Part shown: positions 4,220 to 23,682 of the stretch, in pieces
Layout of the letters: each line of letters opens with the position of its first letter
Position numbering within the stretch: position 1 is the stretch's first letter
DNA from: Sinorhizobium meliloti
GTDB lineage: Bacteria > Pseudomonadota > Alphaproteobacteria > Rhizobiales > Rhizobiaceae
Length of the DNA stretch: 32,000 nt
Assembly (NCBI RefSeq): GCF_017876815.1
Contig: NZ_JAGIOS010000001.1
Location: 810,001 to 842,000, forward strand
Reading direction: 5' to 3'
Notes under the pieces: model-generated
Databases searched by the model: none
Told to the model about the DNA's origin: nothing
The model's input: the letters and a program-made list of their open reading frames with translations, nothing else
Made by a program: the position numbers and the translations under genes

Positions 4220-4304
4220 TATTTTCCCGATTGTGCTCGCCTGGAAGTGCCCGACATGCGGTGCGGGCAGGAGACGCCCCTGCCCGCCCGCCGACCGAGG
4301 AGGG

Positions 4305-7064
4305 CTACTGGTCGATCCTCACCCGGACGGTGAGCCGCGCGACCTGCCCCGAGGGCACGGTGCCATGCTCGGAGCGGATGGCACCCGTCGCGCCATCGGC
4401 CGGCTGAAGCGTCAGCTCCGCCTCAGTATCGCCGGTTGTCGCCGTGCCGGACGATCCGACATAGGTGGTGTAGGCCGGCGTTGCATCGTCGATTTGCAGC
4501 TCCGTCGCGTCCGCCGTGCCCATATTGGTCGCCGTGATGCGGTAGACGATGCATTCGCCCGGATTGGCCGCCTGCCCCGCCTGGGTGAAGCTGCCGTCGG
4601 CAGTTCCGTCGCATTTGGCGTCGACCGCCTGCTCCTTGACCACGACGACATTACCGGAAACGATGGTGACGGTTTCGGTGACCGTGTTGTTGCTCGGATT
4701 TTGATCCTCCACCGTTGCCTCGCCTGGCGCAGTGAGGGTGCTGTTCACGACGATTCTCGCGCTCTCGGAAAGTCCTCCCACGGCGCTGGCGGGTGCCTGG
4801 ACCCGCGAAAACAGCAGCACCCTGTCCCCGGGAGCGAGTTCCGTCTTGTCGAGCGCGGTCAAGATATTGGCAATGCTGGTCACCGTAGCGTCGGTGGAGT
4901 CCAGCACGCCGTTGCCGTTCGCGTCCACGCGAAGCGTTTCCGCGAAGCTCGGAAAATCAGGGTTGTAGCCGATGGGACCGTTGGTGATCGCGACGTTGCC
5001 GAGGTTCTCCAGCGTGTGGGTCATCACCACGACGCCGCCGGGCGCCGCCTGAGCGGTCTGGTCGGTGCGAATGGCGAGGTCGACGACCTGAACGACAGTG
5101 ACTTCGTCCAGTTTGGTATCGACGACCGCCGCACTGCTCGCCGAAGCGGCGCGGAAGTAAACATCCGTGTTGCCGGGCGCAGCCGTGTCCGGCGGGGTTA
5201 CGACGGCGGTGAACGTCGCGGACGCGCCCGGTGCGATCACGCCCGTATTGGTGACCGTGCCGTCGGCATTCCTGAACACCACCTGCCAGCCGGCCGGCAT
5301 GGAGCCGGGCGCGAAATTCGAGCCGCTGAAGGACAGATTGAAGCTGTCGGAAACCGAACGATTGTTTTTGACCACGAGGGTGAATTCGGCGGCCTCGCCC
5401 GGATTGGTTTTGACGGTCGTCCACGGGTCGCCGTTATCATTGGCGACATTGAGACCTGCCGCCAGTTCGCCCGCGTTCTGCAGATCGACGGTACCGCCGC
5501 CGACCTTACTTGCGATCCGCAGCCTTGTCTTGTTCAGCACCGCCGTGTTGCTGATGGAGGACGCCGTCATCGTCGCCTCCCAAGCTTGCGAACCCTCCTC
5601 GCGCGCCGCTCCGTCCGGCAAATTGGCATGCACAAGAAAGTTCGACACCGAGTTCGCGCCCAGCTGTATGTCCGGCCGGCCGTCGGAGTTCGTATCAAGG
5701 AGCGGCGTGCCCTCGGTGGTGGTAAAGCTGAACGTCGTGCCGGCGGGAAACGTGCCGGCGGGAAAACTGTTGCTCGGTTCGACGGAGAGATTGAACCTCT
5801 GCGTGGTGTTCGAGTGATTGGTAATGATCACGTCAAAAGGCACAGGGATACTTGAGGACAGATAGCCCTCTGTATAGGCAATGGTATCGTTCGCAGCGTT
5901 GTCGTCATCGGTGCTGGATGCCAGTCCGCCGTCGGTATAGTTCACGTCCGGCAGATCGCCACCGAATCGGCCTGCATAGGAAGGATCGGCCGCTCTATCC
6001 GCCAGCGTGACAGCCGTCGCCTGGCCGTCGTTGATGACGAGCCGCGCTTCGTTCGAGGTTTGCAGGTCGGTCTGGTCCGAGTCGATCGTACCGGTGTTGG
6101 AAATCGTGCCGGCTGCGCCAGTGGCGACCGTACCGACGAACTCGATATAGCCGCTCTTGCCGACAGGCACGGCGGACAGCGTCGCTTTCACCGTGCGGTC
6201 ATCAAGCGAATACGAATAGAAGATCTTGTGGCCCTGGCCGTTGGTGTGGTCTCCATCATCCTCGCGGGCGTCCGTCATCGCGCTGCCGTCGGACCACCGA
6301 CCCGTTCCCGCCACATATGTCAGTTCGCCTGGCAGCAGGTCCGTGATGATCACATCCGTCGCATCCGCTCCACCGGTATTGCTGTAGTTGAAGCGGACGC
6401 GCACGGTGTCGCCGGGGGTGAGCGAACCTGACCCGTCCCCGTCGTCGAGCAGGCTCATGGTCTTGGTGAACTCGAAAACGGCACCGGTCGTGACGGTCAC
6501 GGTATCCGTGTTGGTGTCGTTCGGCTGGTTCGGCTGGTTCGCCGTGCCCGCGGTGAAATTGCTCGCCGTTGTCAGCGTGCTCGCCGCGGTGATCTTGAAG
6601 GTGGGACTGCCGGTCGCCCCGGCCGCGACATTGACCTCTACGACGACGCAGGCGCTTTCGCCCGCGTTGAGCGAGCCGGTCTGGTCGATCGATGTCAGCG
6701 TATCGGGCACGCCGTCGCAATCGCCATCGGCATAGATGCCGACGAAGGAAAGGCCGGTACCGAAGTCGGAAGTCGTAAGGTCGTACCTGTCCGCCGCGTT
6801 ACCGACATTGGTGATGGTGTGCGGAAAGAGCACCTTGCCGCCGGCGACGGCGGATTTTGTCGTATCGGTCTCGATCTGAACGCCGGCGATGGTGTTGATC
6901 GTCGTCTGGACCAGGTTGGAGGTGACCGAAAAGGTCTGCCCGCCAGACTCGAAGGTCGCAACCGCCTGATTGCCGATGACGGTACCGGCCGCAGGCGGCG
7001 CCGCAAGCGCCGAAGACGCGAATGCCATTATACTCGCAGACGCAACCAAAAGATGCGCCGACAA
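4305..7064 (-). CDS. DUF11 (conserved repeat domain) secreted surface protein, about 919 aa
   Basis: This is the inner part of the 1097-aa track ORF 4305..7598. Repeated DUF11-like motifs are present (HTITNVGNAADRYDLT, MTHTLENLGNVAITNG, YRITATNMGTADATELQIDD). A signal-peptide-like MSAHLLVASASIMAFASSALA|APPAAG results if the TTG at 7064 is the start. The ATG at 7028 would truncate the signal peptide, and the 178 residues upstream look non-protein-like. The start is uncertain. Confidence 0.75.
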   Translation of the reverse strand: MSAHLLVASASIMAFASSALAAPPAAGTVIGNQAVATFESGGQTFSVTSNLVQTTINTIAGVQIETDTTKSAVAGGKVLFPHTITNVGNAADRYDLTTSDFGTGLSFVGIYADGDCDGVPDTLTSIDQTGSLNAGESACVVVEVNVAAGATGSPTFKITAASTLTTASNFTAGTANQPNQPNDTNTDTVTVTTGAVFEFTKTMSLLDDGDGSGSLTPGDTVRVRFNYSNTGGADATDVIITDLLPGELTYVAGTGRWSDGSAMTDAREDDGDHTNGQGHKIFYSYSLDDRTVKATLSAVPVGKSGYIEFVGTVATGAAGTISNTGTIDSDQTDLQTSNEARLVINDGQATAVTLADRAADPSYAGRFGGDLPDVNYTDGGLASSTDDDNAANDTIAYTEGYLSSSIPVPFDVIITNHSNTTQRFNLSVEPSNSFPAGTFPAGTTFSFTTTEGTPLLDTNSDGRPDIQLGANSVSNFLVHANLPDGAAREEGSQAWEATMTASSISNTAVLNKTRLRIASKVGGGTVDLQNAGELAAGLNVANDNGDPWTTVKTNPGEAAEFTLVVKNNRSVSDSFNLSFSGSNFAPGSMPAGWQVVFRNADGTVTNTGVIAPGASATFTAVVTPPDTAAPGNTDVYFRAASASSAAVVDTKLDEVTVVQVVDLAIRTDQTAQAAPGGVVVMTHTLENLGNVAITNGPIGYNPDFPSFAETLRVDANGNGVLDSTDATVTSIANILTALDKTELAPGDRVLLFSRVQAPASAVGGLSESARIVVNSTLTAPGEATVEDQNPSNNTVTETVTIVSGNVVVVKEQAVDAKCDGTADGSFTQAGQAANPGECIVYRITATNMGTADATELQIDDATPAYTTYVGSSGTATTGDTEAELTLQPADGATGAIRSEHGTVPSGQVARLTVRVRIDQ

Positions 7065-7655
7065 TTTTCCTGCGCCACCGATTTGTCTGCCGGTAGCCTG
7101 CTTCCAAGACGCTAGAATTCGCTCGCATAACTCGCCTTCCCGTGACCGATTTCGAACGGGAGTTGCAGGAGATGCCCACTTATATGCAAATAACCAAAAC
7201 AATTTTAGGGGAAATTTCGACTCGACGCTGCCGTCGCCAACATGCGGGGCCCTGCCGAATCCGGGCCCGACTGCCGGCAAATAGCTGTTTTGTTTACAAC
7301 CACAGGAAGAAAACACGTGCGATGAAGATCGCATATCATCGCCGGCGCGGTGTTCTCGCGAGCAACGGAAAAAGCTGCTTTGCCCTTGAAGGCGGGGGGT
7401 GATTCGGAAAATGCCTGCGAGGCGCGCTTCAGTCGGGGACGCCATCGTTCGGGATAGGTGAAGGTCAAGCCGCTTGTCGTCTCCCCCCTTGTGGGGGAGA
7501 ATATTTGCGGCGGGCTCTCGTTTCCACTTCTGCGTTCTGCCCGTGGCATCGTTTGGGCATGCGAACGTCAAACCGTTTACCATCTGCCCCCAAGGCAATG
7601 GTCCCGCGAGAGGATCAGAAGTGCATATGCCCTGGCGGCAACGCGAAGTGCTTCC

Positions 7656-8801
7656 TCACCGGAAACGCAGGTTTTCTTTTGTAAGCTCGTCGACCGATGA
7701 GCAGCCCATCAGCTTCATGCCGCGTTCGATCTCGACACGCATCAGTTCGAGCGCCCGTTCGACGCCAGCCTGTCCTGCCGCAGCGAGCGGGAAGAGATAG
7801 TAACGGCCAAGCCCGACCGCCTTCGCTCCCAACGAGAGCGCCTTGAGCACATGGGTGCCGCGCTGCACGCCGCCGTCCATCATCACATCTATCCTGTCCC
7901 CGACGGCCTGGACGATCTCGTCAAGCTGGTCGAATGCGGTGCGTGAACCGTCGAGCTGGCGCCCGCCGTGATTGGAGAGCACGATTCCGGTGCAGCCGAT
8001 CTCGACCGCGCGCTTGGCATCCTCGACCGAAATCACGCCTTTCAGGCAAAACTGGCCGCCCCAGTGCTGCACCATCTCGGCGACGTCGTCCCAGGACATG
8101 GACGGATCGAGCATCTCGGTGAAATAGCGGCTTATCGACATCGCGCCGCGGCCCATATCGACATGGTTTTCCAGCTGGGGCAGCCTGAAAGGCTCATGGC
8201 GAACATAGTTGACCGCCCAGGAGGGCTTGATCGCAAATTGCGTGATACCGGCGAGATTGAGCTTGAAAGGAATGGCAAACCCCGTTCGCTTGTCGCGCTC
8301 GCGATTGCCCCCGGTGATGCTGTCGACCGTCAGCATCATCACCTCGATGCCGGCCTGCTTGGCGCGCGCCATCATCTCGCGGTTCAATCCACGATCCTTG
8401 TGGAAGTAAAACTGGTAGACCTGCGGACCGTCGCAAATCCGCCGGGCCTCTTCCAGACTGACGGTGCCGAGCGAGGAGACACCGAACATGGTGCCGAACT
8501 TCGCAGCCGCTGCCGCCACCGCACGTTCGCCCTGATGGTGGAACAGACGCTGAAGCGCCGTCGGCGAGCAATAGACGGGCATCGCCAGCCTTTGCCCCAT
8601 GACCGTCACCGACATGTCGACGTCGCCGACGCCGCGCAGGACATTCGGAACCAGATCGCAGCCCTCGAACGCAGCCGTGTTGCGCCGGTAGGTGACCTCG
8701 TCATCGGCCGCGCCATCGATATAGTTGAAGATCGGCGACGGCAGGCGCCGTTTTGCCATCCGACGGAAATCGTGGAAATTGTAACAATCTTTCAGACGCA
8801 T
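7656..8801 (-). CDS. FMN-dependent alpha-hydroxy-acid dehydrogenase/oxidase (L-lactate dehydrogenase / mandelate dehydrogenase family)
   Basis: The translation MRLKDCYNFHDFRRMAKRRLPSPIFNYIDGAADDE... carries the family motif IVLSNHGGRQLDGS. The ATG at 8801 is preceded by GAGGGG. The 22 residues upstream in the track ORF are probably not translated. Confidence 0.85.
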   Translation of the reverse strand: MRLKDCYNFHDFRRMAKRRLPSPIFNYIDGAADDEVTYRRNTAAFEGCDLVPNVLRGVGDVDMSVTVMGQRLAMPVYCSPTALQRLFHHQGERAVAAAAAKFGTMFGVSSLGTVSLEEARRICDGPQVYQFYFHKDRGLNREMMARAKQAGIEVMMLTVDSITGGNRERDKRTGFAIPFKLNLAGITQFAIKPSWAVNYVRHEPFRLPQLENHVDMGRGAMSISRYFTEMLDPSMSWDDVAEMVQHWGGQFCLKGVISVEDAKRAVEIGCTGIVLSNHGGRQLDGSRTAFDQLDEIVQAVGDRIDVMMDGGVQRGTHVLKALSLGAKAVGLGRYYLFPLAAAGQAGVERALELMRVEIERGMKLMGCSSVDELTKENLRFR

Positions 8802-8888
8802 CTGCCCCTCAAACCCGAACGGCCGAATCAATAGCACTTTTTCGATAAGGCGGGATGAGGAAATCAAGCCGCGGCGGGAATCCGGCGC

Positions 8889-9506
8889 TCAGTCCGCCGT
8901 CGAGCCCGCAATGATGGTGAGGCGCCGCATAGATGGTATGTGGACACTGAACAGGAAGACGCCCCACCATTCGGCGCCGTCTTCGAAATAGTCGGAAACC
9001 TCCGGCAGCCGCGCGTCTGACCAGTCGAGAATTTCGCTTCGGTGGAGCGGCGGCAAGATAAAATCCCTGATCTCCTCGAACACCGCCTGCACTTCGCCAG
9101 GCCTGGCGTTCAGTGGATAGGGTGGATGCGAGAAGGCGTAGGCGAACTGCCCTCCAGGCTCAGGGCAAGAGCTCGCACCCGACATGATCCTCACATCGTC
9201 GAGCGAACTCAAGACCGGATCCGTCAACTGCGATCCGTCGGCGGTTTTATAGGAGCCGAGCCTCAGCAGGCTGCCGCTGTCCGGGTCGTACCAGTCGCCG
9301 AAGAATGCCTTTTCGCAGATGCGCCGGCTTCCCAGAGCGCGCAGCTTCCCGGCGTCGAATCTATGGAAGTGGCGCAACGCCTGAGGGACTGCCGAAAGGA
9401 TCTCCTCCTCCGTACCGCCTGCATCCTCGAAGATCGCGAAATCGAGCACGCCCAGCATTTCATCGAAGCGCTCGAAGGCAGGCGGTAGCTTCTCGATCCG
9501 GTTCAT
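8889..9506 (-). CDS. Hypothetical protein (205 aa), no family recognised
   Basis: Clean ORF with balanced, protein-like composition (MNRIEKLPPAFERFDEMLGVLDFAIFED...). It is co-directional with its neighbours. No motif I can name. Confidence 0.55.
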   Translation of the reverse strand: MNRIEKLPPAFERFDEMLGVLDFAIFEDAGGTEEEILSAVPQALRHFHRFDAGKLRALGSRRICEKAFFGDWYDPDSGSLLRLGSYKTADGSQLTDPVLSSLDDVRIMSGASSCPEPGGQFAYAFSHPPYPLNARPGEVQAVFEEIRDFILPPLHRSEILDWSDARLPEVSDYFEDGAEWWGVFLFSVHIPSMRRLTIIAGSTAD

Positions 9507-9714
9507 TCGCCTGTTTTAGGGCGCTGCCATGATAACTGCAATCGGCGGCAGAGGAGACGAGGATAGCTTTGGTATCGAGCATCCACAGGCTCATTCCTTC
9601 CAGCCCTCGAAGGGATCGCGATCCTGCGAAGTCTGGTTGCGGTCGGCCGGCCCCAGGGCAGCCCCTCGGTACTCGCCCTCCCCGTTGGCATTCGCGCCTG
9701 ATATGCCGCCGCCA

Positions 9715-10203
9715 CTATTCCAGCATTACAACGGCATCGACTTCGAAGAGCATCGGGTCGATTGCAAGCTTGGGAACGGGAATCAATGTCTGCGCCGGCA
9801 GCGCCGCGCCGAACATTTCCTTCACGTTCCTGGTCAGCACCTCAAGCTTGGACATGTCGTGATCGACGACGAAGACCGTGAGCTTGGCGACCTGATCCGG
9901 CCTGGCACCGAGCGCATCGAGGGCCGTGCGCAGGTTTGCATAGGCCTGCTGGACCTGGACAGCGAAGTCGGGCGACAAGGCTCCGCTGCTGTCCTGGCCG
10001 CCCTGTCCCGAGATATAGGCCACCCGGCCCTCGCGGGGCACGATCACTGCCGTGCTGTAGCCGTTCGGCGTCGGGTCGTAGAGGTTTTTCGGATTGACGA
10101 TGGTCAGCTTGAGATCATTCTCATTCGCTGTCGTCGCAGCGGGAACGCCCATGGTCATGATGATCAGCCCTCCGATAAGCAGATGCGTGATTGCGCGTGA
10201 CAT
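9715..10203 (-). CDS. RidA/YjgF/endoribonuclease L-PSP family protein with N-terminal signal peptide
   Basis: From ATG 10203 the translation is MSRAITHLLIGGLIIMTMGVPAATTANE, followed by the YjgF-like core GYSTAVIVPREGRVAYISGQGG...KLTVFVVD...IPVPKLAIDPMLFEVDAVVMLE. The upstream 42 residues of the track ORF are unlikely to be coding. Confidence 0.8.
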   Translation of the reverse strand: MSRAITHLLIGGLIIMTMGVPAATTANENDLKLTIVNPKNLYDPTPNGYSTAVIVPREGRVAYISGQGGQDSSGALSPDFAVQVQQAYANLRTALDALGARPDQVAKLTVFVVDHDMSKLEVLTRNVKEMFGAALPAQTLIPVPKLAIDPMLFEVDAVVMLE

Positions 10204-11091: not shown

Positions 11092-11239
11092 GCGCTCGTC
11101 ATCTTCCTGACGAGACGGTGCCGGATCGGCTTAGCTGGAGCGGGATGAGGAAAAGTGTGTGCGGTTTTCCGCCCGCATCGTGATCTAGCCTAAACTAAGA
11201 CCAGGAACGTATCGGAGGACTGCAATCTCTCCTCACCCC

Positions 11240-11353
11240 TCATCTCTGTGCTTGTCACAGAGATCCAGCAGCGCCGCGTCTGCGGTGTGGGGAAATGTTC
11301 TTTCAGCCCAAGGACTTGGTCTCGCTGGATCCCTGTGACGAGCACAGGGATGA
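11240..11353. repeat. Palindromic intergenic mosaic element (REP/RIME-like): two roughly 30-nt inverted arms, each itself containing a hairpin
   Basis: The left arm is TCATCTCTGTGCTTGTCACAGAGATCCAGC (11240-11269). The right arm is GCTGGATCCCTGTGACGAGCACAGGGATGA (11324-11353). The arms are near-perfect reverse complements. Internal stems are CTCTGTG/CACAGAG and CCCTGTG/CACAGGG. Confidence 0.6.
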
Positions 11354-11413
11354 GGAGATCAAAGACACATCCCGGCGACGAATGGCCCGCATCCGGATGG
11401 GGCAATAACGAAA

Positions 11414-11486: not shown

Positions 11487-12470
11487 TTATGGAAGTGTAC
11501 GAACTCCGATCAGGGAGGCGAAGGTCGCGACATCGTCCGCAGGTGACAGAAGAACCAAGTTTGCCCCGGATGGGTGCTTGGTCGAACCGTAGCTGATCGC
11601 ATCGAATCCAGCATAGATAGCACAATCGGCAACGAACCGTGTGAAAACGTACTCGCGCCTTACCCACCCTTCTCCAGTACGTGGCGCTGAGCATAGCGAT
11701 GACCGTGCCAGACACTGAATGAGGATTTCGGCGGGCGTTTCTGCTTCGGGCTTGGGTTGAAGATCGAGAATTTTCAGCGAGGTGTTCAGTGATATCTCTG
11801 CGACATGAAAGCGATCTCCCGGCGTAGCGATCTCAGCGAACGCTGTCTTCTCCGCCGCAGCGAGATAGATCATCCCGTGGCCGGCGTGATTGTAGCGACC
11901 CTCCGCCACAAGATGAGCTGGAGGCGCTCCAAAATCAGTAAGTGCCGGAGACGGCAGATTCGCGGCCTTGCGCGCACGGAACTGAGTGCCCACGACCGAC
12001 TGTGGAAGAGCGGCAACACCGAGCGCTACGATTACATCTAGGACCTCACGAGCGAGCGCGTGCGTGAGCAGCAAGAAAGGGGCGCGTGACGCCAGGCCAG
12101 CAATTTCATCAAGTGCATCTGAGAATTCGGGAGGAACATCGAATGGATGTTCGTAAATCCAGAACTCGCCGTCCAGAACCGAGCCGCAATTCGGACAGGT
12201 GAGCGATTTTGAGAAACGCTCGATTTCCTCGGGATAGAAATCATCCTGAACGCGGCTATTTCGCAAAAAATCGTCAATAGTCATGTACCCGTATTGAAGC
12301 TCGACATCATGGGAAACGGTACCTGGCCACCGAGCGTTGAATTCGTCGTGGCATTTGCCGCAGCATAAGATTCGTGACGAGAAAAAAGACTCAAGGTCCC
12401 GATCAAAATAATCTTGAAAAATGAGGACGCGCTCTTCCTCTGTATTTTCTTCGAAGTACTTGCTTCTCAC
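11487..12470 (-). CDS. RES domain-containing protein (NAD-targeting toxin family) with a Cys4 zinc-ribbon-like N-terminal extension
   Basis: The GTG start at 12470 is preceded by GAAGGG. The C-terminal half carries the RES signature: FRARK, GRYNHAGHGMIYLAAAEKTAFAE, and FDAISYGSTKHPSGANLVLL. The N-terminal roughly 150 aa has CCGKC (about aa 36-40) and CPNC (about aa 92-95). Confidence 0.8.
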   Translation of the reverse strand: MRSKYFEENTEEERVLIFQDYFDRDLESFFSSRILCCGKCHDEFNARWPGTVSHDVELQYGYMTIDDFLRNSRVQDDFYPEEIERFSKSLTCPNCGSVLDGEFWIYEHPFDVPPEFSDALDEIAGLASRAPFLLLTHALAREVLDVIVALGVAALPQSVVGTQFRARKAANLPSPALTDFGAPPAHLVAEGRYNHAGHGMIYLAAAEKTAFAEIATPGDRFHVAEISLNTSLKILDLQPKPEAETPAEILIQCLARSSLCSAPRTGEGWVRREYVFTRFVADCAIYAGFDAISYGSTKHPSGANLVLLSPADDVATFASLIGVRTLP

Positions 12471-12636
12471 TGGGAACCCTTCAAGACCGTGTTGAACCGC
12501 TCTACAAGCCGGAAGTGATGGTCCTGCGCCAGCCTATCCAAGTTGATTTTCTTCCATTTCACTGCTGGCAATTCTGCGGCTCCAGGCAGCCCGAGCAGGT
12601 TTGAAAGCCACCTAAAAGACCCAGTCTAACTTAGCA

Positions 12637-12676
12637 AAAGGGGCGAAGGTCAAACCAAAGGGGCCAGCCTCAAACC
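12637..12676. repeat. Two abutting 20-nt direct repeats in the S8-RES spacer
   Basis: AAAGGGGCGAAGGTCAAACC (12637-12656) is immediately followed by AAAGGGGCCAGCCTCAAACC (12657-12676). The ends are identical (AAAGGGGC ... TCAAACC) and the centre differs. Confidence 0.7.
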
Positions 12677-12693
12677 AGAATCGACGGGGATGT

Positions 12694-15276
12694 TTACGCT
12701 CCTGCCGCGATACCAGCGCGCACTGGCACACCAAGTCGTTCCCGTACCTGCTCATAGACAGGAATACCGGTGTCGATGGCTACTTCAAAACTCACTGCCA
12801 ATGCGTAAGGAACAGGATCAGCAAGAGTCCCTGCAGCAGCGCGGCACGAAACTCTCAGCAGAAGATTCCCATCATCTACAAAGACCCGCGCTGCCTCGCC
12901 TGTCCGGCGTTCATGGCAAACCGTTCCGCGGACAACGGCCTTATCAGTCGGTTGATAGGAATCACGTTCATCCGCCATCCAGTATTTGTCGTCACTTGCC
13001 GCGCTCACATCAAGAGCTGCCATGCGATAACCCTGATGGCGTGGATTGACCGGCGAAAACCAGGCGAGCGTGGTGGTCAATCCGCGAAGCGCGCGCACCC
13101 CATCCAGACCATCGGGAAGTGGTATCCGGTACAACACCGCACTGTCGGCATCGATCGTCCCGGTCCCCAGCAGAGTCGCCCGGTTCTCAGCACAATCCAG
13201 GACCCGTTGAATGTCAGGCACACCGTACCCGAGTAGTCGCGTGATATCGTCCCGCCGCGCAAGATGTGATCCTTGGCCTTGCGGGCCGAAGAAGCCGTCC
13301 AGCATGGCGCCCTTGTTGCTCCATTGCGCGCCATGAACCATCAAGGCCTTCAGAAGCAGAGGGAGTTCGTTAGTGGTCACGTCGGCATGATGGGAGCCGC
13401 CGTCTCCGTCGAGCAGGACATCATGAATGCGGTGTGCGGCACGCGTCGCGAGCGCCGTAGCTGCGCTCGTCCCCCATGTGAAATCTTCGAAGCTGGTCCC
13501 GCCGGCCGCAGAAGGCCGCGCCACCTTGAGTCCGAAATGCTGCGCACCTGCACGTACCGGCATCACAACAAGTTCACCCCCCGTAGCCGCCATCTGCACG
13601 GGCGCTCGGCCACCGCTGAATAGAAGCTCCGGCTTTACGACCTTCTTGAAACCCAGCCCCATCGCCGAGATTATGTTGGGAACACCCTCAGCGGTGAAAG
13701 GGTCGATCCGCCCGGCAGGAAAGCCGCCGTTGAACGCCGACCCCGCGTGAGCGGCCCCGATTGTCAGGGCGTTCATCGACTCGGCAGGCGACAACAGCGT
13801 GCGCTGGCTTTTCTGTGCATTGAGGGAAGCAAAAACAGCTTTTTCGCGATCCTCGGCGTTGGCTGCCTCGAAGTCCGTCCAGTTCGCATAGCCTTCTACT
13901 TTCAGGCGGTCAGTTATGTTTCCGGCGCTCACGAGAAACAGCACACGATAGCGCCAGCTCAAGTAGTCAAGCAAGCGACCAAGGGGACTCATGATGCGGG
14001 CAAACGGCCGTTTCTCATCTGCAAGAGAAAGATTGATCAACACGACTTGCGGAGCAGCTGCGGGCTCTTGGCCTTCTCCCACTTTTATGCGGCGCACGGC
14101 TTGGTGAATAACATCGACGAGCAGGCGATCGTCCGGTGTGCGCTCCCCGCCCTGCGTGGGCCGGAACACAGGCCTAACGTAGAGCGGTCGGGGCAGTGGC
14201 GGCTCACCGTGGTTCAGATCGCCGTGGATAATCAGCGACGCCATCTCGGTGCCGTGTTCGCGCTGCGCCACGGGGTAAGTTTCGGCAAGACCTTCCGGAT
14301 CGTCGACTCTCAGGCGGCCTGCGAGTCGTGCATGATTTTCCACAGGAAGGCCGTCAAGCAGTGCGGCGATCGGTTCATCGCTTACAAACACCGGAGCTGC
14401 GCCCGCGCCAGGACCGTTCTCGCCCTCGATCTCACTGGCCGGCGATCGTGCTACGGACTGGGGGCGCAGGAACATTACGTCATCAGCGCGGGCGAGGCCG
14501 ATATCGGGATTATCGAGAAGCGTTCTGACTGAAGCGGCAGGAAGATCGACGAGCGCAGCATCGTAGCGAATCTCGCTGACCACGGCATGATCGACGACGG
14601 CACCTCCAGCGGACTCTATATCCGCGGTGAGCCGACCGATCGCGCCTGCGCGACGTTCGGCATTCTCGTGATACCAGAGCTCTACCTCAAAACGCACCGG
14701 CGCGTCGGGTGCGCGCTCCAAGTCTTCCGCGAACGCTTTGATCGTCTCGTCAGGGATACGGTCCTGAGGCCCCCAAGGACGCACATCGATCAGTTGTGAA
14801 AACAATTCACGCCACGGTCCGCGCCCGGTGGGCATCCGCTCATTGTTCTTGTAGCGTCTCCAGAGGCTCAGCAGTTCCCGAAGCGCCTGAACGTCGGGCA
14901 TAGCGAGGTAAATGCGTCCGGCGAGCGACTTTCCAGGATCATCCTGATCGTAAAAATCGCCGCTTGGCGCGAAATCATCCTCGTAGTCGCCAAGATATTC
15001 GAGGCCGATGGCTCGTGCCTGTTCGTAGAAGTCCTTTAGCGAGCCTTCCACCTCAAAAACGATAGCGCGCTCGGGCGCGATTGAGGCCGGATCATTGCGA
15101 AGCGCCAGAATTTGCTGGGGGTCTGCAGCCACGCGATCGAGCCGCTCAAAGCGGGGATCAATGCGAGCGCGCTGGCGGTCCCGCGTAGGGCGGCTAATGT
15201 CCGCTCCGCCTCCAGCCCTACCTCGTAAGGTGAAGGGCTCAGGCTGAGGGAGATTAAGGAGCGGCCGATCCGGCAT
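12694..15276 (-). CDS. S8 (subtilisin-like) serine peptidase, about 860 aa, with a roughly 300-aa N-terminal domain of unknown function; IetS-like
   Basis: Subtilase catalytic motifs appear in order: Asp in IAALLDGLP (about aa 309), His in EHGTEMASLI (about 342), oxyanion Asn in LVSAGN (about 454) and Ser in WGTSAATALATRAA (about 605). The ATG at 15276 (GTG at 15279) lies inside the 3' end of the AAA gene, giving a 23-nt overlap. Confidence 0.85.
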   Translation of the reverse strand: MPDRPLLNLPQPEPFTLRGRAGGGADISRPTRDRQRARIDPRFERLDRVAADPQQILALRNDPASIAPERAIVFEVEGSLKDFYEQARAIGLEYLGDYEDDFAPSGDFYDQDDPGKSLAGRIYLAMPDVQALRELLSLWRRYKNNERMPTGRGPWRELFSQLIDVRPWGPQDRIPDETIKAFAEDLERAPDAPVRFEVELWYHENAERRAGAIGRLTADIESAGGAVVDHAVVSEIRYDAALVDLPAASVRTLLDNPDIGLARADDVMFLRPQSVARSPASEIEGENGPGAGAAPVFVSDEPIAALLDGLPVENHARLAGRLRVDDPEGLAETYPVAQREHGTEMASLIIHGDLNHGEPPLPRPLYVRPVFRPTQGGERTPDDRLLVDVIHQAVRRIKVGEGQEPAAAPQVVLINLSLADEKRPFARIMSPLGRLLDYLSWRYRVLFLVSAGNITDRLKVEGYANWTDFEAANAEDREKAVFASLNAQKSQRTLLSPAESMNALTIGAAHAGSAFNGGFPAGRIDPFTAEGVPNIISAMGLGFKKVVKPELLFSGGRAPVQMAATGGELVVMPVRAGAQHFGLKVARPSAAGGTSFEDFTWGTSAATALATRAAHRIHDVLLDGDGGSHHADVTTNELPLLLKALMVHGAQWSNKGAMLDGFFGPQGQGSHLARRDDITRLLGYGVPDIQRVLDCAENRATLLGTGTIDADSAVLYRIPLPDGLDGVRALRGLTTTLAWFSPVNPRHQGYRMAALDVSAASDDKYWMADERDSYQPTDKAVVRGTVCHERRTGEAARVFVDDGNLLLRVSCRAAAGTLADPVPYALAVSFEVAIDTGIPVYEQVRERLGVPVRAGIAAGA

Positions 15277-16279
15277 CACTCTCGTCCTTACTGATACCCG
15301 GCGCTGCGCGCGCGCGTCCCATCCACAACTTCATCTGCTCACGGATAATATCAACCACGGCCCGGCCATCGCCTGAAAGTATCCGCCGACGCAGAATGTC
15401 TGTGAAGAACTCTTCCGCTTCGCTGTAACTGACGCGGCCCAAAGCCTTTGCGATCTGCTCCGTACCCAAGCCAAGTTTTATCTCGGCTCTTGCAGAGAGG
15501 CTGGATAGAAAAGCCGCTAACTGCTTCTGTGTCGGCGCGGGCAGTGTCAACCGTAGCTGGAACCGCCGCCAAACCGCACGATCGAGCAGCTCGGCATGGT
15601 TTGTGGCCGCGAGCACGACGACATAGCTAGGCAAGTCATCGATCTGCATAAGTAGCGAAGTGACTACGCGTTTGATTTCACCAGTTTCATGGATGTCGCC
15701 TCGCTCTTTGCCAACAGCATCAAACTCGTCAAAGAACAATACGCAAGGCGTCGTCCGCGCGTAGTCGAATACGCGCTTGAGGCGCGTCGCTGTTTCCCCC
15801 AGAAAGCTACCGATCATGGCCTCATAGCGGACTACAAAAAAGGGCACGGCGAGGCTTTCGGCGATCGCCTCGGCCAATGTTGTCTTACCGTTGCCGGGCG
15901 GTCCGACAAGCAGGATGCGGTGGCGGGGCTCTAAGGAATGCGAGCGCAGCAACGAAGCGCGCTGCTGCTCCTCAATCAGCTGAGTCGCTGCAAGGCGCGT
16001 GAGATCAGGGAGGACAAGTTCGTCCAGTCGCCGTCGCGGGATCATCTCCGCTATGAATTCGCGCGCGCCGCGACCCGAGGCTTCTGCCGACACGCGGGCG
16101 ATGTTTGATTGGCCGTTCATGGGCGGCGTCTCCACTACTTTTTCCAGACGGTCGGCCAGGACATTGTGCTGCTTGGCCCGCTCTTCGGCGACGATAGCCT
16201 CAACGGTGCGCTTCACCGTCCGGGTGTCACCTGACACACCAGCCTTTACAAGATTTATGAGAAGGTCGCTGCGGGCCAT
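15254..16279 (-). CDS. Classical AAA+ ATPase (CDC48/FtsH-like fold), about 341 aa; IetA-like
   Basis: Walker A is LLVGPPGNGKTTLA and Walker B is VLFFDEFDAVG. Sensor-1 is VVLAATNHAE, and the Arg-finger region is AVWRRFQLRL. The ATG at 16279 is preceded by a perfect AGGAGG at 7-nt spacing. The track ORF start at 16312 is a TTG further upstream. Confidence 0.85.
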   Translation of the reverse strand: MARSDLLINLVKAGVSGDTRTVKRTVEAIVAEERAKQHNVLADRLEKVVETPPMNGQSNIARVSAEASGRGAREFIAEMIPRRRLDELVLPDLTRLAATQLIEEQQRASLLRSHSLEPRHRILLVGPPGNGKTTLAEAIAESLAVPFFVVRYEAMIGSFLGETATRLKRVFDYARTTPCVLFFDEFDAVGKERGDIHETGEIKRVVTSLLMQIDDLPSYVVVLAATNHAELLDRAVWRRFQLRLTLPAPTQKQLAAFLSSLSARAEIKLGLGTEQIAKALGRVSYSEAEEFFTDILRRRILSGDGRAVVDIIREQMKLWMGRARAAPGISKDESDAGSAAP

Positions 16280-16283
16280 ACTG

Positions 16284-16556
16284 CTACCTCCTGCGCCTGC
16301 CACGACGGTCAACTAGCTCGGTCTCGGCGATATCGACGCCGACTGCCTGCAAGCCGCGGAGAACAACCGTACGCATTGACTCTCCACGTTCAGCACAGAG
16401 AAGAGCCACCTGTCGTCTCACGCTGCTGGGAACCATAACCTGAAGCGGCACTTCCTTTTCTGCTGGCACTTCACCAGATGGCGCGACCCTTCGCTCTCCC
16501 TTGGGCGGGGTGCGCTTTGTCATAACCATGGCGGACGCCTCATGAGAACTCGTCAT
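16284..16556 (-). CDS. Small ribbon-helix-helix (CopG/ParG-like) DNA-binding protein, 90 aa
   Basis: The C-terminal half VPLQVMVPSSVRRQVALLCAERGESMRTVVLRGLQAVG fits a beta-strand/helix/helix pattern. The stop is 4 nt before the AAA ATG, and AGGA lies upstream of the ATG at 16556. Confidence 0.55.
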   Translation of the reverse strand: MTSSHEASAMVMTKRTPPKGERRVAPSGEVPAEKEVPLQVMVPSSVRRQVALLCAERGESMRTVVLRGLQAVGVDIAETELVDRRGRRRR

Positions 16557-16695: not shown

Positions 16696-19600
16696 TCAAG
16701 CATTGGCGCCAAACTCACCCCTCATGGCCTGCTGCCAAATATGGGCGTATACGTTGCTAGCCACCAGCTTCTTCTCCTCAGCCGTGAATGGAGGTGTCGG
16801 CAAGCTGGCAAACACGTTGTCCAGGATGAACACCTCGATATCGGCTTTCGTCTGTTCTTTTTCCCAGAAGCGATCGAGTTTCGCGAGCCGCGCCTTGATT
16901 GAGGCAAGAAGTTCCCGGCTCGCCTGCTTCACCCTTTCGCGCGCCGTCTTGTCCAGCTCGTCCTTGAGAAGCAGGTCAAACAGCGCCAGTTCATCCTCGC
17001 GAAGACCTTCGCGCGTGGCGCGCTTCTGCTCCTCGTCCAAGCTGGCTACGAGTTCGATAAGGCGCCTGAACGTCTCTTCGATGGTGGTCCGGTCCTTCTC
17101 CCGGTTATAGTCGGCGACGATTTCCTCGTACTTGATCTGATAGTCCATACGCATTGGATTACGCGCCATCATCTCGGCGAGCTTCTCCTCAACTATGTCT
17201 CTGATATCCTGTAGGGTCGTCGCCTTACGCCGGACCTTCTTCGCAAATTCATCGCGAAGACGTTCCAGATCGATCTTGCTGAGATCGAACGTAAGCCCCT
17301 CGGCCTGATCGTCCCCCGCAGATTGTGTCGCGATGGCTGCATTGACAATACGATGCAGCTCTTTGAGGAGTTCTGTTACATCAGCGGTGTCGCGTCGCTC
17401 GATCAGCTTCTTGTAGATTGCTTCGATGTTGTCGTGCCGCTCCGCATAGGCGTATGCAGAGGGCTCCATAAGCAGTGCCTTAAAGCGGATGAAGACCTGC
17501 CGCGCCATGATCTCAAATCGCCGCTTGGCATCATCGCTCGAATATACGGCCTCGACCGCATCAGCGAGCCCCTTGATCCGGACAAACCCTTTTGCACCAA
17601 GCAGCGCAACCGGATCGAAGCCGAGGCCGCGGAGATGTGCTTCGGTCGCTTCAATGGCCTCGATGAGGGCCTGCACACGTTCCTCGATCGGCGCAATGAT
17701 TTCTTCCCCGCCTGTGCCGTCATCGCCAAGTGCATACTGGGCGAGCGCGGCCCGCAAACTGGCCAGCATGCCGTTGTAGTCGACGATCAAACCAAAATCC
17801 TTGCCAGGATAGACACGGTTGGCTCGCGCAATCGCCTGCATCAGCGTATGCGCCTTCATCGGTTTGTCGATATAAAGTGTTGAAAGGCATTCCACGTCGA
17901 AACCGGTCAGCCACATGGCGCAAACGATGGCGACGCGGAAGGGATGCTTGGGGTTCTTAAAGGCCGTTTCGACATCAACCCGCTCGCCTGCTTCCCCTTC
18001 AAACCCTCTTTTCATCAGGGCGCGATGGGGAATGATGTCAAAGCCCCATTTCTTGAAGTCGGCGACTTCGTTCTGAGCCTCGCTGATTATGATTTCGACG
18101 ATTGTCTCATCTAGCCATCTGGCCTGCGCCTCAAGTTTTTGGGCCTTTTCCGCAAGTGCGGCACGGACTGTTTTGTCGACAGCAGCCGCCGCCTCTGCCC
18201 TTTTGGTCTCACCCTCTTTCCGCACCTGAATGGCCTTCGCCTTCCAGTGGGGAACGATGCGCTGGTACATCCGGGCGCAAGTGATTTTGTCAATGCAGAC
18301 GAACAGCGACTTCCCTGATTCCCAACGTGTCGCGCAATGCTCGACAAAGTCGTGCGCGATTTTTTCAAGCCGCTCGTCGGCGGTGATGATCTCGTAATCC
18401 TTGCCAAGCAGCTTATCCAGGAGTGCGGCCTGATCTGGGTCGAGCTCAGCCTCCTCGATCTTCGCCGCGATCCGGTCGTTTAGATCGACCCTTGCGACGC
18501 CCAGTTTCTCACCTCGGTTCTCATAGACGAGCTTGACGGTCGCCCCGTCTTCTTCCGACCGCTTGAAATCATAGCGCGAGACATAGTCGCCGAAGATACG
18601 CTTGGTGATCTCATCCTGTTTGAACAGCGGCGTGCCCGTAAAGCCGATGAAAGCAGCGTTCGGCAAAGCGAGGCGCATGTTACGCGCAAGTCGTCCGGCC
18701 TGTGTCCTATGTGCCTCGTCAGAGATGACGATGATGTCGTCGCGCTCGCTGTAGGGCTCTTTCGGGTTCACATCCTGATTGAATTTATGGATCAGGCTGA
18801 AGACGTAGCGATGGTTTTCCTTCAGCAGACGCTGGAGGTCCGTGCCCGACGCGGCCCGCGGCGTTTCGTTGCTCGCGACATCGCAGCCGACGAAGGTCTT
18901 GTAAATCTGGCTATCCAGATCGTTGCGGTCGGTCATAAGCAGGAAGGTAAAATTGCCCGGCACCTTCCGGCGCACTTTTTCAGCAAAGAACGCCATGGAA
19001 TAAGACTTGCCGCTACCCTGGGTATGCCAGAACACGCCAAGCCGCCCGAGGTCCGGATGTGCCCGCTCGATGATATTCACGGGCCCTTCCGGGATGAATG
19101 ACGGAAGGGCTGGCGCAGCTTCCTTCTCCATCGTCGCAAGCCGTTTCTGATCGGCAATCGCCCGGTTCTCTAACGGCAACTCAATCACACGATGCCGTAG
19201 GCGTTCCTCACGGGGGAACTCGCGCTTTAACTCCTCCTGGTAGGCAACCGATGCAACGGCGCGGTTGACCCCCAGCACTTGATGGTTGCGCGCTACCACC
19301 TTGCGCGTCGCGCCGGCCTTGCTCTCGTCGAACAGGATGAAGTTCTCTATGAAGTCCAGAAGCCGATCATGTGTCAGCATGCCATTCAGCAGCACCTCGG
19401 CGTCAACATTACCTTTATCCGTCTCGTCGAGCCGCTTCCACTCCGCAAAATGATCCCATTCACTGGTGATCGAACCGTAGCGCGCGCGGTCACCATTGCT
19501 GACAATCAAAAAAGCGTTGTGGTGAAAGGCATGCGCGACAACATTCTCATCCATGTAATCACGCAGGTTGCCATCAAACCCGGCGCGGATGTTTTTGTAG

Positions 19601-20121
19601 ACCGCCTTCAGCTCGATGAAGACGACCGGCAGCCCGTTGACAAAGCATACAAGATCGGCGCGGCGATTGTAGTTCGGCGTCCGCAAACCGGTCAGTTTCA
19701 GCTCTCGTACCGCAAGAAAACGGTTGCTGCCCGGCGCGTTGTCGAAGTCAATTACGCGCGCGCGGGCATCGCGCACACGCCCCATGGCATCCCGATAGTG
19801 AACCGGAACGCCATTGCGGATCAGCCGCGTAAACTCCTGATTGTGCTGCACCATCGAGCGGCTGAAATCATGGACCGTAAGCGCCCGCACCGCATCATCA
19901 ATGGCTGACGGCGGCAGCTCAGGATTAAGCCGCACAAGCGCGGCGCGCAGATCACGCGTAAGGACCGCCTCACTTGTACTGGCACGTCCAAGCGTCCCTC
20001 CCGGCCCGAACGTTTCATCATTCCAGGCATAGATACTATCCCAGCCAAGCGCCGTCTCAAGGTGGACGGCGAAAGTCGCCTGTACCAGCCGATCCTCGCT
20101 GTTGATGCCTGTGACCGCCAT
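16696..20121 (-). CDS. hsdR: Type I restriction endonuclease subunit R
   Basis: 1141 aa. The PD-(D/E)xK-like motif is RADLVCFVNGLPVVFIELK. Helicase motif I is HTQGSGKSYSM and the DEAH box is VISDEAHRTQ. It has a long helical C-terminal region and follows hsdS by 24 nt. Confidence 0.95.
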   Translation of the reverse strand: MAVTGINSEDRLVQATFAVHLETALGWDSIYAWNDETFGPGGTLGRASTSEAVLTRDLRAALVRLNPELPPSAIDDAVRALTVHDFSRSMVQHNQEFTRLIRNGVPVHYRDAMGRVRDARARVIDFDNAPGSNRFLAVRELKLTGLRTPNYNRRADLVCFVNGLPVVFIELKAVYKNIRAGFDGNLRDYMDENVVAHAFHHNAFLIVSNGDRARYGSITSEWDHFAEWKRLDETDKGNVDAEVLLNGMLTHDRLLDFIENFILFDESKAGATRKVVARNHQVLGVNRAVASVAYQEELKREFPREERLRHRVIELPLENRAIADQKRLATMEKEAAPALPSFIPEGPVNIIERAHPDLGRLGVFWHTQGSGKSYSMAFFAEKVRRKVPGNFTFLLMTDRNDLDSQIYKTFVGCDVASNETPRAASGTDLQRLLKENHRYVFSLIHKFNQDVNPKEPYSERDDIIVISDEAHRTQAGRLARNMRLALPNAAFIGFTGTPLFKQDEITKRIFGDYVSRYDFKRSEEDGATVKLVYENRGEKLGVARVDLNDRIAAKIEEAELDPDQAALLDKLLGKDYEIITADERLEKIAHDFVEHCATRWESGKSLFVCIDKITCARMYQRIVPHWKAKAIQVRKEGETKRAEAAAAVDKTVRAALAEKAQKLEAQARWLDETIVEIIISEAQNEVADFKKWGFDIIPHRALMKRGFEGEAGERVDVETAFKNPKHPFRVAIVCAMWLTGFDVECLSTLYIDKPMKAHTLMQAIARANRVYPGKDFGLIVDYNGMLASLRAALAQYALGDDGTGGEEIIAPIEERVQALIEAIEATEAHLRGLGFDPVALLGAKGFVRIKGLADAVEAVYSSDDAKRRFEIMARQVFIRFKALLMEPSAYAYAERHDNIEAIYKKLIERRDTADVTELLKELHRIVNAAIATQSAGDDQAEGLTFDLSKIDLERLRDEFAKKVRRKATTLQDIRDIVEEKLAEMMARNPMRMDYQIKYEEIVADYNREKDRTTIEETFRRLIELVASLDEEQKRATREGLREDELALFDLLLKDELDKTARERVKQASRELLASIKARLAKLDRFWEKEQTKADIEVFILDNVFASLPTPPFTAEEKKLVASNVYAHIWQQAMRGEFGANA

Positions 20122-20145
20122 GCTACTAAGCCCTCCGCTCCGACA

Positions 20146-21294
20146 TCATACCGCGATCTCCCCGTTCATTAGACGAGGCATCAAAATGTCACGAGCTTGA
20201 GCGAGTTTATCAATCTGCCGCAGCAACGTTTGCATTTGCTTGGCAGCGTTTCCTGCAAAATCACCAAACAGCGTTTGTAGCGGGCGCGGAGGAGTTGTTA
20301 CACGAACCTCGGCAATCCGGTTCTTCGAAAGTTCTTTCTGATTAGTTGCCCCTTCGCCCATTCCCTCGAAGACCGGCTGCAGCTCAAGGAGCGCGTATCC
20401 AAACCAGAACGGATGAACATCACTATTCGGTCTAGCGACAGTTAGGTGAGAGTCAAATGTCATGGCCACCGGTTCGAACCAGCATTGAGCCACACGCCCC
20501 AGCGTCCCTGTACCCGTCGAATTTATGAGAACGTCCAGGTAGTTGAGCGCCTTTTCGACCTTATACTCTTTTCGTTGCCGTCGGGCTGGAGCGGTTGAAA
20601 GGAGTCGATCGCGAACGCATTTCTGGCTCAATACGATTGAATCACCATCGTCGTCGTATGTCGGCGAAATTCCTCGTCCTAAGAAGCAGCACGCATCGCC
20701 TATTCTTTTTCGTTCCCACCCTTTGGGGATACCCTCTATGATCTCAATATGCTCGTGACCGGGGTAGCGGAATCGACTAAACCACTCAAGGTAAAGCATC
20801 CGCACTGACTCATCCAACAATGCAATTCGCCGTCTGTTGTTCTCGATCAGATTGTCGTAAGCAGCAAGGATGGAAGCGATCTTGTCTTGGACTGGATGAT
20901 CTGCCAAACGGATTGGAAGACCATGAATGTGATTTCGATTGAGCGTGGGATTAGCCCCACCGACATTAAATCGTTCCAAGCCCAAGCACTTCAAAGCATA
21001 GTATACGAAACGTGCGTTGTTGCCGTTTAGTGATTTGCTCCAAAGCGTCGTGTCATGAGGCCAATAGTCGCCCGCGCTGTAGTGGACGGAGCCGAGCGTG
21101 CCTTTTCGGCCAATGACAACGCCGGGGCCGGCAGCCATGGCTTCGTTGTGCCAACTGCTCGGCCCAGATGACGAGATAACCGGTACATCTCCCTCCTTCT
21201 GATGATCCTTGGTTATGTCGAACCCACGTTGCAGGTAGACGAGGTCTTCAAGAATGGCAGGCTGCCAGTGCTTTGCGCCCAGGTATGATGTCAT
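20146..21294 (-). CDS. hsdS: Type I restriction-modification specificity subunit S
   Basis: 382 aa with two target-recognition halves. They are separated by the conserved helix ILAAYDNLIENNRRRIALLDESVRMLYLEWF, and the protein ends LLRQIDKLAQARDILMPRLMNGEI. Its ATG overlaps the hsdM stop (ATGA, 21291-21294). Confidence 0.9.
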   Translation of the reverse strand: MTSYLGAKHWQPAILEDLVYLQRGFDITKDHQKEGDVPVISSSGPSSWHNEAMAAGPGVVIGRKGTLGSVHYSAGDYWPHDTTLWSKSLNGNNARFVYYALKCLGLERFNVGGANPTLNRNHIHGLPIRLADHPVQDKIASILAAYDNLIENNRRRIALLDESVRMLYLEWFSRFRYPGHEHIEIIEGIPKGWERKRIGDACCFLGRGISPTYDDDGDSIVLSQKCVRDRLLSTAPARRQRKEYKVEKALNYLDVLINSTGTGTLGRVAQCWFEPVAMTFDSHLTVARPNSDVHPFWFGYALLELQPVFEGMGEGATNQKELSKNRIAEVRVTTPPRPLQTLFGDFAGNAAKQMQTLLRQIDKLAQARDILMPRLMNGEIAV

Positions 21295-23390: not shown

Positions 23391-23469
23391 TTTGCTTATG
23401 CCTTTGAGTCCCTGGCGTTCGTCGCGAACCTCAGCACGCTGTCCGGCTTCCGCCGGCATGCGCTCTGCT

Positions 23470-23682
23470 TCACTGCTTTTTTTCTTTAGGTTCGGCATCG
23501 TCGCCCTTTCCGTGTTTTGCGGATTCTCGTCTTATCCAACTGTCGATTTCGCCGCTGTCGAAACGCCATGAGCCTCCGACCTTAAAGCCCGGAATCTCCC
23601 CCTTAGCGGCGAGCTTGTAAGCCGTCTTCTCATTGATTTTGAGAAGGGCGGCCACCTCGCGCACCGTGAGTATCTCGCTCAT
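23470..23682 (-). CDS. Excisionase-family (MerR-superfamily) helix-turn-helix DNA-binding protein, 70 aa
   Basis: From ATG 23682 the translation is MSEILTVREVAALLKINEKTAYKLAAKGEIPGFKVGGSWRFDSGEIDSWI. This is the classic short HTH_17 / excisionase pattern. It is the first gene of the hsdMSR string. Confidence 0.75.
   Translation of the reverse strand: MSEILTVREVAALLKINEKTAYKLAAKGEIPGFKVGGSWRFDSGEIDSWIRRESAKHGKGDDAEPKEKKQ

Follow-up and report, generated by a model that had tools for sequence, protein, structure and literature searches.

The window analysed here, a stretch of 32,000 nucleotides (nt) from Sinorhizobium meliloti (contig NZ_JAGIOS010000001.1, positions 810,001 to 842,000 of the forward strand), carries on its minus strand, at 11487–12470, a complete gene for a two-domain protein of 327 amino acids (aa), in which an acidic domain with four conserved cysteines (Cys4) precedes a RES catalytic domain. 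As judged from its sequence, this protein is probably a functional NAD+-depleting defence effector. In bacterial immunity NAD+ depletion has a central place, and the comparisons described below make it moderately probable, in our estimate, that the protein acts as a self-contained, single-chain effector of the abortive-infection type, in which NAD+ phosphorolysis by the RES domain would be gated by the acidic, zinc-stabilised N-domain. The other readings considered were, in decreasing order of weight, a toxin–antitoxin (TA) element, a ParT-like ADP-ribosylating enzyme, a pro-toxin of the neighbouring Iet system and a decaying passenger gene.

Stand-alone two-domain RES proteins that reside in defence islands and protect E. 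coli from phages were described in January 2026 under the name aRES (Osterman, ..., Sorek; bioRxiv 10.64898/2026.01.28.702374), so the system in the window is not categorically new. A first-pass annotation of this DNA, made from the sequence alone, had proposed an autoinhibited or signal-activated single-chain effector in place of the canonical TA architecture; the present comparison supports this idea as right but less novel than had been assumed, its kind having been described in 2026.

The RES catalytic domain

The catalytic half of the protein (aa 160–312; 11535–11993, minus strand) was delimited from the Pfam match, the Foldseek comparison and the conserved residues. Its earlier assignment to the RES family was borne out: the Pfam model PF08808 matched aa 176–311 with an E of 1.5e-16 and 61.3 bits against a cut-off of 23.2, and the same model was matched by all 34 aligned relatives. 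The catalytic residues R192 (codon at 11895–11897), E213 (11832–11834) and S296 (11583–11585) are intact and not mutated. Across 151 full-length members of the family, R167 is conserved in 149, R192, Y202 and E213 in 150 each, and S296 in 148. By motif and spacing, not by residue-level structural alignment, these five positions match R27, R47, Y58, E69 and S126 of MbcT, a toxin whose toxicity depends on R27, R47 and Y58 (PMC6436930). The domain is preceded by a helical lead-in (aa 116–158; 11997–12125, minus strand) with an invariant P131-F132-L133 and with AF2 helices at 116–129, 131–136 and 138–153.

Comparison of the C-terminal half with the PDB by Foldseek returned MbcT (6fkg), P. putida RES (6gw6/9r35), NatT (8qnl), VPA0770 (8gug) and ParT (6d0i), all with a probability of 1.00 and with E values from 1.6e-5 to 3.7e-3. 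A sequence-profile search of the PDB gave nothing meaningful and did not recover the RES toxins, the link to which comes from structure comparison only. The toxins of the RES-Xre (COG5654-COG5642) systems, MbcT, P. putida RES, NatT and ParT, share with the window protein the catalytic fold and the R...R...Y...E...S pattern, and NAD+ is the expected substrate. They are, however, single-domain proteins of 145–250 aa, always accompanied by an antitoxin of the Xre family, encoded upstream, which plugs their active site, whereas the window protein has no partner gene and bears an N-terminal extension of ~158 aa.

At the level of sequence profiles, the RES domain of the window protein is clearly closer to aRES than to the TA toxins. 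The aRES-type reference was the Salmonella houtenae protein EHY67455.1 (L071:5530-6555), which matched RES with an E of 1e-17 and PF18870, the model for the aRES N-domain, with an E of 6e-5 (23.8 bits against a cut-off of 27.4). When the RES domains of our family and of EHY67455.1 were aligned by hhalign, the probability was 98.3% (E 2e-14, 154 columns, 31% identity), against 20% for the alignment of the family with a canonical TA-type RES toxin; the NCBIfam model Res_ParT_toxin (NF049844) reached only 16.7 bits against its cut-off of 110. These two low values and the lack of a partner gene agree with the non-canonical architecture proposed in the first-pass annotation, while the kinship with aRES, the fixed two-domain architecture and the location in defence and mobile islands make a signal-activated, single-chain effector a plausible reading. 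The aRES proteins deplete NAD+ in an infection-dependent manner, the products being nicotinamide and ADP-ribose-1''-phosphate (ADPR-1''-phosphate), and lose defence when predicted active-site residues are mutated; ADPR-1''-phosphate, moreover, overcomes NARP1, the common pathway of NAD+ repair in phages (bioRxiv 10.64898/2026.01.28.702374).

Another chemistry was also considered, namely that of a ParT-like ADP-ribosyltransferase modifying a host or phage protein (e.g. Prs) or a nucleic acid, with no bulk depletion of NAD+. In the Foldseek search, ParT (6d0i, 6d0h) and the NAD+ phosphorylases were matched about equally well, and the motifs do not separate the two activities; at the same time, the closest RES relatives with data (aRES) and the majority of the RES toxins studied (MbcT, P. 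putida RES and NatT) degrade NAD+, and we regard the ParT-like activity as unlikely.

A side observation concerns the full-length model, the top Foldseek match of which was chain B of the cyanophage A4 pre-ejectosome (9k3a_B, 1071 aa; E 1.1e-5, TM 0.25, rmsd 24). A RES/ART-like domain may be present in this protein, which the phage ejects.

The Cys4 N-terminal domain

The N-terminal domain (aa 1–115; 12126–12470, minus strand), defined by conserved residues, isoelectric point (pI) and profile searches, consists of a helix at 11–29, a CxxC-helix, a small beta element, a second CxxC knuckle and a FWIYEHPF strand. The cysteine motifs reported for it in the first-pass annotation were read directly from the DNA of the minus strand: the first knuckle, C36-C37-G-K-C40, has its C37–C40 codons (TGC GGC AAA TGC) at 12351–12362, and the second, C92-P-N-C95 (TGT CCG AAT TGC), lies at 12186–12197. 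Each of C37 and C40 occurs in 150 of the 151 relatives and each of C92 and C95 in every one; together with F44, W48 and P49 these cysteines make up the invariant residues of the domain. The retention of the four cysteines in practically every full-length relative, in a family with 133 homologues found by database search, places the feature far beyond chance, and the pattern suggests that the domain is probably held together by one Zn2+ ion on C37, C40, C92 and C95. Throughout the family the domain is strongly acidic (median pI 4.3, net charge −13), which speaks against a nucleic-acid-binding zinc finger. The N-part is slightly less conserved than the RES part, mean pairwise identity being 35% vs 42%.

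No described domain was recognised in this part of the protein. Pfam searches with 34 members gave no N-domain family at E ≤ 10 except for weak zinc-ribbon noise, and a Foldseek search of the N-domain model against PDB and BFVD gave no match with E < 1, the weak matches (RING, rubredoxin and sirtuin zinc modules) being compatible with a zinc knuckle and nothing more. A word-indexed profile search with the N-domain found only fragments of the same RES family. When the N-domain profile was run against 1.84 billion representative proteins, 127 matches were obtained, nearly all of them fragments or proteins of ~330 aa with the domain at the N-terminus; three matches of odd length (P0203, P0222 and P0243) contained no informative domains, and no fusion to HEPN or another effector was seen among them. 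Since the profile matches were so few and none carried another effector domain, the N-domain seems to be private to this RES family; as far as these searches reach, it is an undescribed domain confined to a small, widely scattered family.

The first-pass annotation had called for structure prediction of this domain. The AF2 model of the full-length protein, built on a 34-sequence alignment, reached a pLDDT of 84.4 and a pTM of 0.80, and the N-domain modelled alone reached 80.5 and 0.63, respectively. The higher pTM of the full-length model is a hint of fixed packing between the two domains.

Comparison with aRES and other multidomain proteins

The window protein resembles the aRES proteins, such as the E. 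coli UC5 aRES, in being stand-alone, in the order of its domains (N-terminal non-catalytic, C-terminal RES) and in its location in a defence or mobile island. By definition, aRES proteins are of 300–600 aa and combine RES with PF18870 (HEPN/RES NTD1), recognised with an HHsearch probability >80% against Pfam (bioRxiv 10.64898/2026.01.28.702374). None of the 34 members of our family matched PF18870 in hmmscan at E ≤ 10, and hhalign of the N-domain with those of the EHY67455.1 type (eight diverse plasmid-borne relatives) gave a probability of 7% over 17 columns around the first CxxC; note that the absence of PF18870 was judged here by hmmscan and hhalign, whereas the criterion of the aRES authors was HHsearch against Pfam. 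The N-domain profile recovered no aRES protein among the 1.84 billion representatives.

At the same time, both kinds of N-domain carry an invariant Cys4 of two CxxC knuckles, the first of them of the form CCxxC[FH]x[DE]. In the aRES-type N-domains (EHY67455.1 and its relatives) the cysteines are C6, C9, C30 and C33, there is also a W...NRFF motif that is absent from our family, and the knuckles are ~20 residues apart, in contrast to 51 residues in the window protein. Very remote kinship or convergence is possible in view of the shared Cys4 and the similar CCxxCF knuckle, but neither is demonstrable. The two groups also differ in abundance: the present family, with 127 clusters at 50% identity, is rare, whereas aRES occurs in 3–10% of the genomes of major phyla. 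Three of its carriers, Ensifer sp. Root31, Salipiger thiooxidans and Paenibacillus jilunlii, are absent from the aRES gene table, in which other strains of the Root/Leaf collection are present. The relatives of EHY67455.1 were found in 321 plasmid records, mostly of conjugative enterobacterial plasmids.

The stand-alone RES proteins of the Bacillus group provide a further comparison. These are of 320–500 aa, and one of them, WP_000367279.1 (B. thuringiensis HD-771 plasmid p01, L065), shares with the window protein the lead-in and the RES domain over aa 131–308 (34% identity, E 1e-19), whereas the N-terminal 170 aa are unrelated, lack a Cys4 pattern of this type and lack PF18870. The occurrence of the same RES module behind another N-terminus suggests, on the sequences compared, that N-domains have been exchanged on a common RES effector. 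Two long RES genes of this kind, at 3494–4579 of L065 (361 aa) and at 3170–4504 of the Peribacillus simplex plasmid L066 (444 aa), have N-termini without a match to PF18870 or to the Cys4 domain, which suggests that several more unclassified combinations of an N-domain with RES exist. Both had been tried as examples of PF18870 proteins and were rejected because that domain is absent.

A functional parallel is offered by DSR2, in which a SIR2 NADase and a sensor are combined and for which phage tail tube protein serves as the activator (PMC11850899). Like the window protein as interpreted here, DSR2 joins an NADase effector and a sensor or regulatory domain in one polypeptide, with defence by NAD+ depletion. 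It differs in its unrelated SIR2 fold, in its product, which is ADPR and not ADPR-1''-phosphate, in its far larger size and in its reversed domain order.

Distribution of the family and integrity of the gene

When 5.8 billion protein clusters were searched by word index, 133 relatives were obtained; they belong to Rhizobiales, Bradyrhizobium, Bacillus, Clostridium, Deefgea and other groups. Genome scans contributed further loci, in Gammaproteobacteria, Bacillota, Desulfobacterota, Chlorobiota, Verrucomicrobia, Acidobacteria, Fusobacteria and Leptospira. Full-length relatives are of 320–365 aa and align over ~88–100% of the query with 32–79% identity, and the combination of N-domain and RES is fixed in ~150 proteins. 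No phage record with a member of the family was found, the sole match in the phage collection being a mis-filed Salmonella contig, the one that carries the EHY67455.1 locus.

The complete reading frame, established from the ORF list, the sequence, the homologues and the AF2 model, runs from a GTG start at 12470 to a stop at 11487–11489, and a Shine-Dalgarno-like GAAGGG box lies 6 nt upstream of the start, at 12477–12482. The product deposited in GenBank (P0001) is 100% identical to the window protein but is annotated with 265 aa from a start at M63, so that the first CxxC is lost from it together with the 62 missing residues. The long form of 327 aa is the real one, since the homologues, at 32–79% identity, align from residue 1.

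The short GenBank product, together with fragments of the family found elsewhere (L052, L050 and L053), might be taken to mean that the gene is a decaying or non-functional passenger at the edge of an island. One of these remnants, at 9965–10225 of L052 (Bradyrhizobium elkanii WSM2783), retains 86 aa of the C-terminus with 72% identity over aa 261–320 in an otherwise unrelated context, and thus indicates decay of the gene in some lineages. The window copy, however, is full length, has every invariant residue intact and a good ribosome-binding box, and can be aligned over its whole length with the closest homologue, P0002 (79% identity), which makes decay of this copy the least probable of the readings, and a very improbable one.

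Proposed mode of action and significance

In the mechanism that we favour, the acidic N-domain would pack against the RES domain and hold the enzyme off in healthy cells. In MbcTA the arginine-lined active-site cleft of the RES toxin is blocked by the antitoxin (PMC6436930), and an acidic lid over such a cleft would parallel in cis what the antitoxin does there in trans. Phage infection would be sensed by the N-domain, the block would be relieved and the RES domain released; its most likely activity would be that of MbcT and aRES, the phosphorolysis of NAD+ to nicotinamide and ADPR-1''-phosphate, and the resulting collapse of NAD+ would leave no phage replication. We thus infer zinc binding, NAD+ phosphorylase chemistry, autoinhibition, a phage trigger and a defence phenotype.

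Several points weigh against this interpretation. MbcT does not require its S126, and in ParT the same fold serves to ADP-ribosylate proteins, so the chemistry is unreadable from sequence. The N-domain is not PF18870, and regulation may therefore differ from that of the validated aRES proteins. No PADLOC model matches the RES protein itself, and the counts of defence genes among its neighbours are raw, that is, drawn up without a matched background set. Finally, neither a terminator nor a promoter was seen between the upstream gene, ietS, and the RES gene, so co-transcription with Iet is possible.

More tentatively, with a likelihood that we place somewhat short of even, the Cys4 domain could be a previously unrecognised fold that combines sensor and autoinhibitor and defines a second class of stand-alone RES defence proteins under regulation of its own ("type II aRES"), its cue being either a phage signal other than that of the PF18870-type aRES or a perturbation of zinc or redox state. 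If this is true, then, taken together with the long RES proteins of Bacillus, one RES effector module would have been recombined with several unrelated sensor domains. A second family would place the same effector behind a different, putatively zinc-binding domain and so widen the range of RES-based defences; it would also allow a clean comparison of how N-domains gate RES and would point to a new phage-sensing module. Current annotation is inadequate for this family, as the GenBank product is 62 residues short, PADLOC is blind to the protein and the aRES search criteria miss it.

Search for a partner gene

A total of 55 genomic loci was collected, and the partner analysis was made on the 48 of them with a full-length copy. 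In an all-against-all BLASTP comparison of 2783 ORFs (at least 40 aa, within 4 kb of the gene) no family was common to more than three loci, and the sole family present at three consisted of ORFs antisense over the RES start, an artefact. Inspection of the adjacent ORFs at the 48 loci revealed nothing recurrent; distance, orientation and content vary. An Xre/COG5642 antitoxin gene was found neither in the window nor at the 48 loci, in agreement with the earlier statement that an antitoxin of this type is lacking.

The spacer that separates the ietS stop from the RES start (12471–12693, minus strand), which includes the GAAGGG box, is exactly 223 nt long, as had been stated, but the accompanying claim that it encodes nothing longer than a few codons did not hold: it contains an ORF of 34 aa with a TTG start (12467–12571), which overlaps the RES GTG start by 4 nt, and an ORF of 47 aa with an ATG start (12612–12755). 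Neither has a Pfam match or a tblastn match in the 55 related loci, and a conserved small antitoxin ORF, which according to the first-pass annotation would have spoken against a partnerless protein, was not found at the homologous loci. No tandem repeats and no Rfam match that would indicate an RNA antitoxin or a repeat array were found in the spacer; no sigma-70-like promoter was found there, nor any terminator-like site, all four predicted ones lying inside the RES ORF.

The two closest homologues (L001 and L067) have upstream of them, 4 nt before the RES start, a gene for ~400 aa of unknown family (8738–9997, plus strand, in L001; 1487–2666, plus strand, split by a frameshift, in L067), with an RNFLAH (Rx4H) motif that by eye is HEPN-like. 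This gene was rejected as a partner: it has left no remnant in the window, has no Pfam match and is absent from the next-closest relatives.

Other close relatives have different neighbours: a Gabija-like OLD/UvrD pair with an MmeI-like methylase, and a RelB/ParE TA pair at the same locus; an integrase and a PIN toxin-antitoxin pair; an integrase island that includes an EcsC-family gene; helix-turn-helix (HTH) and Fic genes with one unknown gene; or UvrD, HNH and SLFN genes with an unknown three-gene operon. When 106 large neighbouring ORFs of 15 loci were compared with the PADLOC models (E ≤ 1e-10), matches were found to dGTPase, Shedu SduA, DrmC/DrmD, a DRT reverse transcriptase, GajB, AbiTii, IetA/IetS, PDC-S39 and methyltransferases.

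These neighbourhoods bear on the possibility that the protein is a fused TA module or an orphan toxin, the N-domain being an antitoxin in cis and the role one of addiction, island stabilisation or persistence and not of phage defence. RES domains are classic toxins of type II TA systems, members of the family lie in mobile or variable islands beside TA pairs (RelB/ParE and PIN, and BrnTA at the same site in S. meliloti Ak57, see below), and the acidic N-domain could mimic the block of a basic cleft by an antitoxin. On the other hand, at E ≤ 10 no member matches an HTH domain or the C-terminal domain of an antitoxin, the RES domain has a much stronger kinship with aRES than with the TA type, and the nearest characterised relatives act in phage defence. 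Moreover, a covalently attached antitoxin, unless cleaved, would give no post-segregational killing by differential decay. A TA role, although the weightiest of the alternatives, is thus judged improbable next to a single-chain defence effector.

The defence island in the window

Upstream of the RES gene and on the same strand lie ietS (12694–15279, minus strand; an S8 peptidase, PADLOC 1002 bits, Pfam Peptidase_S8), ietA (15254–16312, minus strand; an AAA ATPase, PADLOC 485 bits, Pfam AAA) and, identified by Pfam and PADLOC, a type I restriction–modification (R-M) operon (16696–23498, minus strand) of hsdR (16696–20121), hsdS (20146–21294) and hsdM (21291–23498). The GC content falls from ~0.62 to 0.52–0.57 across the RES/Iet/R-M stretch. 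S. meliloti Ak57 (L070, CP090106.1) is collinear with the window up to ~11446, ~40 nt past the RES stop, and beyond this point the place of RES, IetAS and type I R-M is taken there by a helicase fragment and the toxin-antitoxin pair BrnT/BrnA. The end of collinearity makes the RES gene the outermost one in an island that is specific to the strain; the site of the island is a variable defence/TA hotspot beside a TetR gene, and the RES gene has been acquired horizontally. The record CP090106.1 is labelled "pSymB", but it is of 3.72 Mb and carries rpmH and yidC, and so is the chromosome.

The position of the gene raises the possibility that it encodes a third component of the Iet system, for instance a pro-toxin whose N-domain is removed on infection by the IetS subtilase with the IetA ATPase. 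The gene is on the same strand as ietS and 223 nt downstream of it, with no predicted terminator in the spacer; the mode of Iet killing or protection is, to our knowledge, not established; and a second locus, on a Shinella plasmid (L006), has IetA and IetS near a family member. That system (4257–7600, minus strand), however, lies ~2.4 kb upstream of the family member on the opposite strand and is of another Iet subtype, and tblastn with the window IetS gave no match in any of the 55 loci, L006 being the only one with ORFs that fit the IetA and IetS models. RES and Iet are therefore adjacent as an effect of the defence island, and they do not form a conserved system of three genes. Furthermore, the closest relatives adjoin unrelated genes, and both PADLOC and NCBIfam define Iet as a system of two genes. 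A role as an Iet component is accordingly rated as highly unlikely, and the self-contained effector remains the preferred reading.

As a side observation, the presence of Iet nearby at two of ~50 loci is above expectation for a rare system, but fits the clustering of defence islands. The IetA and IetS of the window match the PADLOC models PDLC04232/04233 strongly, yet reach only 222.8 bits vs 510 and 60.8 bits vs 900 with the NCBIfam IteA and IteS equivalog models, respectively; scores so far below the cut-offs indicate a divergent Iet subtype, left unnamed by the NCBI pipeline. A tRNA-Pyl (anticodon CTA) that ARAGORN predicted at 14584–14676 on the plus strand, inside the ietS ORF and opposite to it, is almost certainly a false positive.

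Additionally, the intergenic DNA that separates the TetR gene from the RES stop (11125–11364, with a hairpin core at 11236–11357) is a multi-copy repeat of Sinorhizobium/Rhizobium, which occurs at 10–14 places per replicon with ~89–90% identity and folds as a long hairpin. Its Rfam matches are only sub-threshold (miRNA-precursor), and it is probably a RIME-like intergenic mosaic element beside the island boundary.

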